Shown here: piece after piece, positions 13,950-62,768 of the stretch
Numbering within the stretch: position 1 is the first letter of the stretch
Layout: each line of letters opens with the position of its first letter
DNA from: Eledone cirrhosa
Lineage: Eukaryota
Assembly: GCA_964016885.1 (NCBI GenBank)
Contig: OZ024743.1
Location: forward strand, 30,690,001 to 30,754,000
Reading direction: 5' to 3'
DNA: 64,000 nt
Translations under genes and position numbers: made by a program
The notes under the pieces: model-generated
Seen by the model: the letters and a program-made list of their open reading frames with translations, nothing else
Databases searched by the model: none
What the model was told of the DNA's origin: nothing

Positions 13950-14287
13950 TATATAATGAAGGTTTAGCAAATAAGGAAAAGTTTCAAAATAAATTTTAAA
14001 AGATTCACTGTACTCACTATGGTTACCTTTACTGAATCGGTTTTGAGTCTCAAAAATAAATGGACAGTCCTTGCGGCCTTCCATTGAACAGATAAACTCT
14101 CGTCAGAAGGGTCTTTTCACTTGGAGAATCTAGAATTCTCGTATTCAAATTACGAATTGGCGCTATTCAAAATTGTTCCCGAGATGAGAATGAATGATTA
14201 CCGATTCGGTAAATGTAACCATAGTGGGTACACTGAATCTTTTAAAATTTATTTTGAAACTTTTTCTTCTTTGCTAAACCTTAATTA
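13950..14287. mobile_element. Fold-back non-coding element (probable PLE pLTR derivative)
   Basis: 13955-14040 is inverted at 14200-14287; ends in (TA)n. Confidence 0.7.
14026..14110 (-). ncRNA. Type I hammerhead ribozyme with extended stem II (G12>A in this copy)
   Basis: Minus strand: CCUU CUGACGA GAGU[47 nt incl. AUGGA..CC GCAA GG..UCCAU]ACUC AAAA CCGAUUCAG UA AAGG; the other arm gives a perfect stem III ACCGA-U-UCGGU. Confidence 0.65.
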
Positions 14288-14949
14288 TATATATATATAT
14301 ATATATATATAGGTTTATGTTTATTATCGTCTGGGACCCAGAAACCTTTGGTAATAGGGTATTTATATATATATGTTTATGTGTGCATATAGATGTAGTA
14401 TGTGGGTGTGTGTACGCGTAGAAATGTGCGTGTCATTTCGTACTTTGTTATCCTGGCACAATAACTTAAGTTATGAACATATTATAATATGGTTGTGTTT
14501 GGAAATCAAATCGTGATTTGTTATCCTCACTATCGGAAGTACAATGTAGGAGCACTATAGTAAACTGATATATGCATTTCTGTATATACTTTTACGGTTT
14601 TCAGCTAATTATACATGACAGTCACAGTAATGTTAGACAGATGTCCCAAAGGGACAATATAACTATTCGTTGGGGTTTCAATATAAAGAGTTCTATTACT
14701 GTAAATGTTAACTGAAACTCCAATATTCGTATTGCTTAATATAATTCCTGAAAGCCATAATTGCAAATTGGATATGACTGCAAGTCTGATGGTATTTATC
14801 TGAGAAACTGCTTTGAAATATCCTAATATATTTGAGAGGAAATGTTAACTGCATCATCCGAATAACCAAACAAATGCCCTTCAAATAAAATGTTACAATT
14901 CAACCAGTGATCTCACATCGTAGAAAGATACCTTTCGATCACGCATAAT

Positions 14950-15250
14950 TATCCGATTTGAACTGAGAAATTTCCCCTCCGTGGCATAAGTCTGGGCAAT
15001 GTCGTTTGCGGAAGACGAGGAGTGCTCAGCGTTACCAGTCTCCCGCCCCACGCCAGGAATGTTTTCCAAAGGAAAGGCAATGGCCGATACAGCTCGGTAT
15101 CAGTGGTGGTGTCGCAACTCATTTCTACAGCAGAGTAAACTAGAGTAACCTGAAATAAAGTGACTTGCTCAAGGACACAATGCCTCACCCGGTTCGCGAA
15201 ACTTACAAACTTACAATTGCTATACCAACTCTCTAACCACTAGGCCATGT
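14950..15250 (-). mobile_element. tRNA-derived SINE (second family), decayed
   Basis: Minus strand reads catggcctagtggttag (A box) ... ttgtgtccttgagcaagtcactttatttc, a typical SINE body. Confidence 0.65.
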
Positions 15251-16046
15251 CACGTCGGCCATATCTTATCTTCCTGATATATTACATGATGGAGGCTGTA
15301 AAGAAAGTGTGATCGCGATTCTGTGCAAAATACTTAAGGTTTGCAACACAACAACAGCAACAAGAACAAATACTTTTTGAATGGTTTATTCGGCATTGAA
15401 ACACAGATACCCCAAACAGAGTTGGACATTAGTACTTAAACCACCAGCCCCATTTGCGTTTATACCACTTATATTTTTCGTATTCGCATGAGTTGTGTTA
15501 TTAGCAGATTTTAAAGCACCTACTCTGTCCAAGGTAATAGGACATGATCATCCCAAGAAGCTGTTTTGCAAAATCCAGCCCATCTAGGCTCAGTAGCCTA
15601 ATCCCGTTTACATTACACCATATAATTTTTTTAAAAGACTAGGTGGTCGTTACCAGAACATAGTGGATGAGTTAAATATTCGGACAGAAATTATACATCT
15701 TTAAATGACAGCCAAAAACACAACTAAAATATTCAATAACATCACATAGTACTAGATCGGTTAACTAGATCGATATTTAAGTAGAGATTAGAAGGATACA
15801 CAATTTAGTTTTAAGAGAGGTCCGTGCTTGACCACTATAGAGATATTTCCATTCATTTATATATTTATAGTAGTACATTAGAGATGTATAGGCATATATG
15901 TAAGAAAAGATCTAATTTGTCCTCTGCAGTCGATGGTAGTAGAAACAAATTTCTAGCATCAGAGTGAACTCAATTACGATATTAAAGAGAAAGATCAAGA
16001 ATAAAATGTTGGCCGCATGTATGACTATCACAAATAAACAACAACA

Positions 16047-16150
16047 ATAATTGTTTGTACGTTTGGCACAGGGCCAGCAATTACCCATTGCATTACTGGT
16101 ACTTTATTTTATCGACCCCGCAAGGTTAAAAGGCAAAGTTAACCTCAGTG
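16047..16150 (-). mobile_element. tRNA-derived SINE (OK-like), 3' fragment
   Basis: Matches the reverse complement of 43985-44085. Confidence 0.8.
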
Positions 16151-60779: not shown

Positions 60780-61900
60780 TTACCTGAGAATGTGAAAGAA
60801 ATGTAAGTATAAAAGGGCCGTAAAACTAATGTCCCATTAGATCCTATTAACGTTTGATTCGAAATTTCACTTTGTCACGTACTAGATAGAGTATAGGCTG
60901 TCGCACACTCAGCACCACACATAACCAGGACAGTGTAGACGTTATGAAGATCTACTTTACAGCAGATGACATAATCATACCTATGTTAGGAATATGGGTG
61001 AGTCCAAGTAACGCCATAAATTTGCTCCAGATGGCCACTTAACTCAGTACGAATGGCAACCCCTACAATTCGCACACTATTCCCATCCTCAGGCTTACAC
61101 TTCAAGAAAATGGTGAAACCCTCTTCCGATTCTGGCAACTGATACTAACCACCCAACCTTGTTTCAGAGTGTGCAGCTATAACAATACGATGCCGAGGCA
61201 ATTTCTCTATCAAGCCTGTTCGAGGTTCAGGATTACGGGGCACGCAACAGTCAAAAGGTGACCTTTATGTTCCAAATAACGACATTTATTATGTACACCC
61301 TTTAAAGTACTTCTGGGAATTTGCCCCGCTAATATAAATCACTGCCAACCACAAGTTGTTGGCATGTTTGTCGACTGAACAGCCTTCGTTTAAGTCAGAT
61401 TTTCTAGAATGTTCCCTTGTGGTGTGGGGGAGCAATGCAGTCGCAAAAAGAGCTTAGCAGAGGCTCAACTCAGATTACTGTGCAGTGACGTTAGGATAAG
61501 ACACGGGCTGTCCATGTGTAGATTTCTGACTATGCTCTTCTAACCAGTCGGGTCTGCATGCCTTGCAACTCGTCCATCATTGTGGGACTTGTGAAGAAAT
61601 ATCTGCACATAAAGATCAGCAAGCTACGTGATAGGGCTACACATATAGAACCCACTCGTATCTATGTGCCCAGTGACAACGCAAGGGAGGATAACAGGAC
61701 AGTTACGAGGGTCGCATGTATTATTGTCATGGAGTTTAATTTCTCCGGTGAGTGTAGCTGTACACACACTGTTTGGTCAATTCAAAGTTAGTGAGGCTAT
61801 TTAAACCATAGTTAGGGATAATAGCCGTTGACACTATCGGGTTCAAAATACATGTGACAGCACTTTTACCTACTGTGTTTCCACGTAACATCCTCGCGAG
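60780..61900 (+). pseudogene. Very decayed Ty3/Gypsy integrase relic
   Basis: Successive fragments LLGI....HCQPQVVGM (cf. YHPQ.NG.VE), LECSLVVWG...KEL (cf. LPLVLLG.R..KEDL), YVPSD, YEG occur in the expected order. Confidence 0.4.
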
Positions 61901-62109
61901 AGTCTGTTTGATGAGCCGGTCTATCCGCCGACTACCCGACTATGAAGTAGATTGTACTGGAATACCTGGCACCAGTAGCTAGTAGAGACGTGATCTGACA
62001 GTATATATACTCACACATATACACACACACAGAGAAAAACTTTTCTATTCCTATAGAATGGTTTTCTATATTATATATATATATATATATATATATATAT
62101 ATATATATA

Positions 62110-62525
62110 TGTAGATAAATCTACCAAAAGTTTACGGTAGTGTCCAATCCGTATGAAGAACTCAATGTAATCCGGATATCATGGAAAGAAGAGATGCAAT
62201 GAAAAATCACTTTCGGTGAAAGATAAACGGAATACAGAGTCAAGATAAAATATTAAAAAAATAATGAATAAAACAATGAAACAGTTCCTTATATTAAACA
62301 AAAAAAGTTCATTATTTAACGATCGTTTCTGGGATATATGTGTTCGAATTGGCATGTATATTTAACAGATCTATGTACAATTGTATAATTTTGTACATAG
62401 ATCTGTTAAATATACATGCCAATTATAACACATATATATCCCAGAAACGATCGTTAAATAATGAACTTTTTTTGTTTATTATAAGGAACTGTTTCATTGT
62501 TTTATTCATTATTTTTTTAATATTT
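62110..62525. mobile_element. Fold-back non-coding element in (TA)n, same family as 26627-27017
   Basis: 62248-62380 is inverted at 62390-62525; GAAAC-GATC-GTT motif in both arms. Confidence 0.78.
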
Positions 62526-62547
62526 TATATATATATATATATATATA

Positions 62548-62768
62548 GTAATAATAATAAATTTGAAGACTAAAATCCAAAGAAGGCTCTATAAGGATAA
62601 ATATATATCACATATATAACAACCGTAGAACAAGTATTTATTAAAATAACAGATTAAAGTTTAAACAAAGAATCGCTGCTGTCACCTTTAACGGGATCTT
62701 CTGAAGATCCTGTTAAGGGTGAAAGCAGCGATTCTCTGCTTAAACTTTAATCTGTTATTTTAATAAAT
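62548..62768. mobile_element. Fold-back of the Nematis-like pLTR end
   Basis: 62548-62703 matches the reverse complement of 25764-25918; re-inverts at 62701 (CTGAAGA...GAAAGCAG..CTGCTT). Confidence 0.82.

Follow-up and report, generated by a model that had tools for sequence, protein, structure and literature searches.

Introduction

The canonical insertion of a Penelope-like element (PLE) is described as a pseudo-long terminal repeat (pLTR) with an adjacent inverted, 5'-truncated copy and a tail on one side (PMC3846280, PMC8557442). Truncated PLEs have been reported to give minimal hammerhead ribozymes on opposite strands, 100-700 bp apart (PMC4209133). The entry for Penelope-13_HM records an inverted copy that is 5'-truncated, with hammerheads on the two strands (PMC8557442). 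The PLE protein is reported to nick and extend both strands, with two reverse transcription start sites that bound the tail; it is a predicted dimer, and insertion proceeds without ribozyme cleavage (PMC11167929). Retrozymes are considered likely PLE passengers (PMC7229834; bioRxiv 10.64898/2026.07.22.740005), and further background is found in PMC6155905 and PMC2377424. Described here are seven short inverted-repeat units with hammerhead motifs in 64,000 nucleotides of Eledone cirrhosa DNA (assembly GCA_964016885.1, contig OZ024743.1, positions 30,690,001 to 30,754,000), referred to below as the window.

The units are very probably 5'-truncated insertions of PLEs and of two tandem hammerhead repeats without an open reading frame (ORF), folded back at insertion into (TA)n, and thus by-products and not elements of their own. 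The evidence consists of family membership, parent elements for four families and tandem units for two, two fixed 3' ends, the pairing of a tailed with a tail-less arm, and variable centres. The structures are real and of a known kind, and the new mobile class proposed for them in an initial annotation is not supported.

The seven insertions

The initial annotation listed seven inverted repeats in (TA)n context without ORFs. All seven were recovered, with arms of 53-191 nt and 92-98% complementarity. (TA)n contacts at least one end of every unit, and the longest ATG ORF across the units is 1-87 amino acids (aa), which is no real ORF. The extents originally given were too short, a one-sided tail having been left out. 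The units are sorted into six families, named U1 (13950), U2 (22540), U3 (25975), U4/U6 (26627 and 62110, which belong together), U5 (42200) and U7 (62548). The window, from a 3.0-Gb assembly, is rich in (TA)n and retrotransposon remains. The insertions and two further U7 copies are as follows.

13841-14292: U1 insertion, from an ORF-less 483-485-bp tandem hammerhead repeat (putative retrozyme); tailed arm 14198-13841 (sense on the minus strand, tail about 13841-13948), tail-less arm 14200-14292.
22472-22651: U2 insertion, 3' end of a putative Hydra-type PLE; tailed arm 22598-22472, tail-less arm 22599-22651.
25973-26187: U3 insertion, PLE 3' end; tail-less arm 26069-25973, tailed arm 26070-26187.
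26626-27014: U4/U6 insertion, PLE 3' end; tail of about 137 nt on the left side.
42206-42864: U5 insertion, from an ORF-less 320-bp tandem hammerhead repeat; tail-less arm 42647-42206 (1.4 units), tailed arm 42627-42864.
62111-62528: second U4/U6 insertion; anatomy as in 26626-27014, with a different turn point.
62548-62770: U7 insertion, PLE 3' end; tailed arm 62705-62548 (86-nt tail), tail-less arm 62699-62770.
25431-25918, plus strand: further U7 copy with an internal deletion and a small 5' hairpin at 25431-25498.
63293-64000, minus strand: long U7 copy that runs beyond the window (locus L073), where it reaches PLE ORF remains and a tail-less arm, which is short and inverted.

The 64-nt tail of the U3 unit ends early, after about 21 nt. 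The unit at 26626-27014 turns inside the long stem II of its hammerhead, and the CUGA half is therefore absent from both arms. Across the genome, the junction of the U7 unit at 62548-62770 is a hot spot.

Assembly or library artefacts, or cruciform repair at (TA)n unrelated to retrotransposition, could produce palindromes that all adjoin (TA)n, and the window does hold a few unrelated small (TA)n palindromes (18298-18388). Such an origin is extremely improbable, because the arms differ by 2-8% with independent mutations in the assembly sequence and end at element-specific fixed sites in six families.

A common insertion footprint

In all six families the target is (TA)n, the arms run head to head between two fixed outer ends, and a tail of 30-137 nt is present on one side only. 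The tail is about 64 nt in U3, 70 nt in U2, 86 nt in U7, 137 nt in U4/U6, about 100-108 nt in U1 and 30-37 nt in U5. Every sampled U7 arm (30/30) ends at one of two sites, 12 being tailed and 18 tail-less, and an adjacent inverted arm is present at only 9 of 28 U7 sites. Ends that abut TA fall at the two sites in 40/40 cases for U1 and 38/39 for U5.

The arrangement is that of PLE complex insertions, in which the inverted 5'-truncated copy is accompanied by a tail at one end only. Joined insertions of the four PLE families pair a tailed with a tail-less arm in 35/36, 11/11, 15/16 and 12/14 rows (73/77), where 13 rows with gaps of at least 150 nt were set aside and 20 U3 rows were chosen on the tail; in the sets not chosen on the tail, the count is 53/57. 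The same pairing is found in 16/16 U1 copies, chosen by a tail-region pattern, and in 15/20 U5 copies (31/36 together).

Exact motif matches genome-wide number 1,510 for U1, 35,095 for U2, 6,583 for U3, 7,365 for U4/U6, 962 for U5 and 35,562 for U7. These are counts of arms and not of insertions, and reversed-pattern controls gave 0. The initial proposal to look for copy number and fixed ends is answered by these 962 to 35,562 matches per family and by two fixed 3' ends in each.

The families also nest in each other's (TA)n flanks and form clusters of unrelated PLE ends (L021, L043, L047, L054, L218, L245 and others).

Parent elements of four families

A link to PLEs had been suggested from the start, and four families do continue upstream into PLE ORFs. 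On their protein motifs, U2, U3, U4/U6 and U7 are 3' ends of ORF-bearing PLEs of putative Hydra-clade type. Among the first 100 U4/U6 matches listed, ten head-to-head pairs lie 4.2-5.6 kb apart. All ten were examined; L161 gave P0001, a 765-aa reverse transcriptase-endonuclease (RT-EN) frame lying between the inverted U4/U6 ends, and the other nine hold parts of the same frame (sizeable or short tblastn matches). A full natural copy of U2 at L267 has a period of 5966 bp, its tail continuing into the ORF start. ORF remains of U7 were found at L073, L086, L096 and L298. The sequence upstream of U3 encodes a GIY-YIG C-terminus at L061 and L062, the only part of the U3 protein observed, and those copies have 5' inversions of their own.

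RT motifs (YRDD) and the Y-I-G of a C-terminal GIY-YIG domain can be recognized in P0001 by eye. It has 260 homologues at E<=1e-20, one of them named GIY-YIG, and a PDB search with it gave nothing useful. The best named homologue of a resident PLE protein is from an octopod. P0001 contains RWR (for RWK), DKT, the CxCX5C linker, CxxC and CxH; the U2 protein contains DKT, CxCX5C, CxH and RWR, and the U7 protein CxCX5C and CxH, while CxxC alone is visible in U3. Insertion into (TA)n and a hammerhead in the pLTR are further Hydra-clade traits, and U-U at the base of stem II fits File S2 of PMC8557442. The length of under 3 kb given for the clade does not apply (U2, 5966 bp; U4/U6, more than 5 kb), because the 3' untranslated regions (UTRs) are long. 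Assignment to Neptune, the first guess, was dropped, since the protein motifs match the Hydra description.

Two tandem repeat families without ORFs

U1 occurs as tandem arrays with nine (L260) and ten (L261) hammerhead cores at a spacing of 483-487 bp and a unit of 483-485 bp, and U5 as arrays with a spacing of about 320 bp. The longest ORF is 44 aa in U1 and 35 aa in U5, and the GC content is 0.40 and 0.33, respectively. Both are thus short ORF-less tandem repeats with one type I hammerhead per unit, and both appear to fit non-LTR retrozymes. The non-autonomous PLE-type component that the initial annotation had envisaged thus appears to exist, in the units at 13950 (U1) and 42200 (U5).

No autonomous parent of U1 or U5 was seen in 36 loci of each. 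PLE protein matches occur in 3/36 U1 and 4/36 U5 loci; four of these seven were mapped, and there the matches belong to other families or lie apart, while the remaining three were judged without mapping, so that a rare parent is possible. U1 and U5 likely borrow a PLE enzyme. The U5 monomer was looked for in sequencing runs, among which no RNA run was listed.

A near-identical 310-bp tandem array of 11 units (L105:394-3603) is 76% like U5 over about 140 nt. It has no clear hammerhead core and is possibly a satellite from a retrozyme relative.

Centres and junctions

The initial annotation suggested that the fold-back itself may be a non-autonomous mobile unit, with a transcript that is a hairpin or is cleaved from either strand; the unit would then be copied whole. 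This is very unlikely. The fixed outer ends, the thousands of copies and the two non-autonomous families would agree with it, as would recurring junctions: 1,230 U7 loci turn within a single short interval, located where the ribozyme core has its 5' edge. However, hairpin lengths form a continuum that reaches kilobases, an adjacent inverted arm is missing from most of the U7 arms sampled, and none of the seven units in the window has two intact ribozymes. Palindrome centres also vary, with 67 classes in 73 palindromes.

The recurring junctions were examined at 40 U7 and U3 loci, all read with the tail on the right. Asymmetric U7 junctions occur in both mirror orientations to the tail, at 12:7 and 5:7, and one U3 junction, which spans two subfamilies, likewise occurs in both, at 3:2. 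A single orientation was seen for two U3 junctions that are rarer (3 and 2 copies). One copied master would give one orientation, and the joins are therefore most simply remade at each insertion. A junction shared by descent across loci, as expected of a mobile fold-back class, was not found among these.

With PLE ORFs upstream in four families, the variable centres and the junctions in both orientations, the mobile class finds no support. The findings come largely to the picture that had been set against it at the outset, namely unit-specific breakpoints in the 3' ends of autonomous PLEs, though not literally, given the breakpoint hot spots and the two families without a parent in 36 loci each.

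Turn points cluster visibly at the 5' edge of the hammerhead core; for U2 and U4/U6 this cluster is confounded by the search pattern. No cluster was seen at the ribozyme cleavage site.

Route of inversion

In LINE-1 (L1) twin priming, both target strands prime reverse transcription, and the resulting inversion is joined by microhomology. The internal position where the second L1 primer anneals varies, and there is no overlap between the segments. Unlike in L1, both starts are fixed here and the arms overlap.

For the hairpins as by-products of PLE insertion, the following route may apply. The GIY-YIG domain of the Hydra-type PLE enzyme would nick both strands in (TA)n, and reverse transcription would be primed from both break ends, once at each of two fixed RNA start sites, the stretch between them becoming the tail. 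Both cDNAs would halt before completion, in many cases close to the hammerhead's 5' edge, and would be joined end to end, often via microhomology. The U1 and U5 tandem families would be mobilised in trans, and the opposed hammerheads would arise as a by-product of pLTR mirroring. Twin priming of this kind has an even chance, or a little better, of being the route. No published twin-priming model for PLEs was found in the open literature searched, though further supplements or subscription papers may contain one.

The other route considered has the same origin with inversion by self-priming, a form of which has been proposed on an antisense template (PMC3846280). The first cDNA or the antisense template would snap back and be copied, the endonuclease would trim the product to the tail, and later deletions would reshape the centre. 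This would account for arm reaches that are correlated and often nearly equal, and for the many joins at short palindromes or microhomologies. However, a copy cannot exceed the first cDNA or hold a tail that the first cDNA lacks. At L162, a tail-less arm of 5.3 kb, cut inside the ORF, is joined directly to a tailed arm of 679 nt, and at L159 and L298 the tail-less arm is likewise kilobases longer, cut in the ORF and directly joined. L134 and L021 are smaller cases. The first three loci break both orders of copying, and copying of the first cDNA therefore cannot be their route; asymmetric junctions, moreover, occur either way round. Self-priming is accordingly an unlikely route overall, though one to be reckoned with. 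Two priming events, one per start site, explain the long tail-less arms, the one-tail rule and the mirror-symmetric joins, and the arm geometry fits twin priming better than snap-back.

Several points weigh against the by-product account or its twin-priming route. Arm reaches lie within 10 nt of each other in 45/73 palindromes, partly by selection, and are correlated (Spearman 0.63 for 20 U3 copies; 0.47, p 0.056, for 17 U7 copies), a pattern that requires both enzymes to stop at a common point of the same RNA, or else speaks for a hairpin intermediate. Two U7 junctions make up 17 and 13 of the first 50 listed, the first being the one in the window, and the top U3 junction is found in 7/41. 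Identity between the arms of one copy exceeds that between copies slightly or not at all (U3, 0.93 vs 0.90; U4/U6, 0.94 vs 0.88; U5, 0.91 vs 0.92), and joins may have been obscured by later deletions at the centre. For the anole system in vitro, no difference between strands in the use of start sites is reported, from an assay that did not address how the sites pair (PMC11167929). Pfam gave no match on P0001, and the putative Hydra-clade assignment is drawn from motifs and hammerhead style.

A broader proposal joins obligate twin priming by a dimeric enzyme, which would produce the inverted arm together with the one-sided tail in a single step, integration of retrozymes in trans by the PLE enzyme, and function of some ribozymes with a stem II of 50-126 nt, a form missed by standard descriptors. 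This combination is tentative, falling somewhat short of an even chance.

Hammerhead motifs

Rfam gave one sub-threshold hammerhead match in the window (HH9, 42326-42403, minus strand, E 0.33) and otherwise only miRNA-like noise on (TA)n. A relaxed type I descriptor gave 7 matches, compared with 0-1 in each of 20 shuffles, and only two of the 7 lie inside the seven units (26040 and 42385, both minus). Full or partial hammerheads were claimed for the units and are present, but two intact opposed ribozymes, as read from the sequence, were found in 0/7. Individual motifs are listed below.

14026-14113, minus strand: U1 type I hammerhead with a branched stem II of 52-55 nt; the G of GAAA is lost here.
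26006-26045, minus strand: U3 minimal type I hammerhead, intact; stem II has U-U at its base, stem III is palindromic and the site is GUA.
42344-42390, minus strand: U5 type I hammerhead, intact; its core is the U3-A8 variant and its stem III is palindromic.
25759-25809, within the plus-strand copy 25431-25918: U7 complete variant hammerhead.
63453-63403, within the minus-strand copy 63293-64000: U7 complete variant hammerhead.

The units at 25975 and 42200 each contain one intact hammerhead and a second with a mutated stem III or cleavage triplet; in U3, the plus-strand mirror near 26095-26134 is mutated in stem III. The unit at 62548 has two damaged hammerheads, and its CTGAAGA is a product of the junction, the core of the U7 family being CAGAAGA. 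In each of the units at 13950 and 22540, a full but damaged motif is accompanied by a 3' half. In 26627 and 62110, the CUGA half is missing from both arms.

A type I hammerhead-like motif is present in all six families, with conserved core boxes, stems I-III and NUH site. The U5 core has the published U3-A8 form in 24/28 copies, and the U7 core is CAGAAGA in 25/33. The stem II region is 52-55 nt in U1 and 99-126 nt in U4/U6, both folding as long hairpins. Stem I has at least 4 bp in 41/50, 29/40, 14/33, 26/28, 29/31 and 39/40 copies of the six families, which were chosen by loose regular expressions and hence partly selected. Double changes in stem II were found in U1 (6/21) and U4/U6 (8/29), and others occur in U2 stem I and U5 stem II. 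This covariation, one pair each among related copies, lends weak backing to the putative hammerhead stems. RNAalifold did not recover the three-way junction.

Predicted folding and cleavage

Whole units are predicted to fold as long hairpins (U3, for example, at -145 kcal/mol). The arms are head to head, and a read-through transcript from either side therefore makes the antisense arm first. In such a transcript the opposed hammerheads would be locked in a long hairpin. To that extent, as a folding prediction for read-through transcripts, the sequestered ribozyme of the initial annotation stands; self-cleavage from either strand is not supported, since the antisense arm precedes each ribozyme and no unit has two that are intact. 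Cleavage from both strands of the hairpins is unlikely on these models. The partition-function probability of stem I is 0.0 in a whole palindrome and 0.02 and 0.001 in isolated motifs, and so discriminates little. By analogy with the dimers described in PMC4209133, the tandem arrays, not the hairpins, would be predicted to cleave, as dimers.

Other elements in the window

A PLE with Pfam RT and GIY-YIG matches (11233-12105 and 10352-11239, minus strand) lies at 8870-12527, flanked by 470-bp inverted repeats. It is nested within the inverted 3' ends (7932-8393 and 12946-13378) of another PLE, with ORF remains at 6499-7816, and hammerhead cores lie at 8082 and 8751 in this region. A degraded Hydra-type endonuclease region at 24342-25420, 33% identical to P0001, is directly upstream of the U7 copy at 25431. 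PLE 3' ends at 27038-27672 and 46550-47184 are 98% identical and in opposite orientation.

Further hammerhead-like motifs belong to other families: one at 23071 (minus strand), which has a 47-nt stem II and passes the descriptor, and others at 27256 and 46966. Small palindromes centred on (TA)n or (TAGA)n at 18298-18388 and 53176-53399 have no match among the six families. A LINE bearing zf-RVT has inverted 3' ends at 20591-22046 and 52713-53839. A short dispersed repeat, probably a short interspersed element (SINE), has at least 8 copies (16017-16146, 19102-19230, 28023-28269, 43466-44165, 57090-57297, 59754-59861), two of them head to head at 43693-44093. Elsewhere, another recurring fold-back family of about 250 bp, outside the six, lies by (TA)n at L021:600-1000 and L068:7714-8000.

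Comparison with known systems

As a class of element the hairpins are ordinary, and their value lies in the very large natural record that they provide of PLE integration. The arm geometry of thousands of young insertions can decide between twin priming and self-priming, a choice left open in PMC8557442 and PMC11167929. The footprint also offers a test for the enzyme that moves animal retrozymes, which in the sources consulted is argued from co-occurrence and sequence trees; if it holds, the U1 and U5 footprint would be direct genomic evidence of a PLE enzyme integrating retrozymes in trans. Double-stranded RNA and rearrangement may both arise from the short palindromes, which number tens of thousands.

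The closest described elements are the Hydra-clade PLEs (Craig et al. 2021, PMC8557442; Hydra-1_Obim, Penelope-13_HM). Shared with them are the C-terminal GIY-YIG domain, RW[K/R], DKT, CxCX5C, CxxC/CxH and the (TA)n target, as well as a hammerhead whose stem II has U-U at its base and whose cleavage position is often U (File S2, PMC8557442). Unlike in that description, the families here have tens of thousands of arms each, units of 5-6.5 kb with long 3' UTRs instead of under 3 kb, and tails of 64-137 nt instead of 30-40 nt; one family has a 99-126-nt stem II and one a CAGAAGA core. The literature search found no PLE hammerheads with a long stem II, apart from one case in File S2 of PMC8557442, a spike-moss PLE with a 53-nt stem II region. 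Only the 99-126-nt form would thus go beyond the published example found.

The head-to-head arms, one-sided tail, palindromic joins and opposite-strand hammerheads at equal spacing are those described for canonical PLE insertions. Different from those accounts, most copies here are cut to 100-700 bp, and in the copies sampled either arm may be the longer and the joins are mirror-symmetric.

U1 and U5 resemble the metazoan non-LTR retrozymes of PMC7229834 and bioRxiv 10.64898/2026.07.22.740005 in having ORF-less tandem units of under 45% GC, one type I hammerhead per unit and a palindromic stem III. In contrast to the 170-400-nt RNAs reported there, the U1 unit is 483-485 bp, with a stem II of 52-55 nt, and both families show the footprint of PLEs, with tail, inverted arm and (TA)n. 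No description of a retrozyme with a PLE footprint was found in the retrozyme literature searched, though further supplements or subscription papers may hold one. The inverted copy with its tail and the opposite-strand hammerheads are already published; less ordinary are the retrozyme footprint, the 99-126-nt stem II and the arm geometry.

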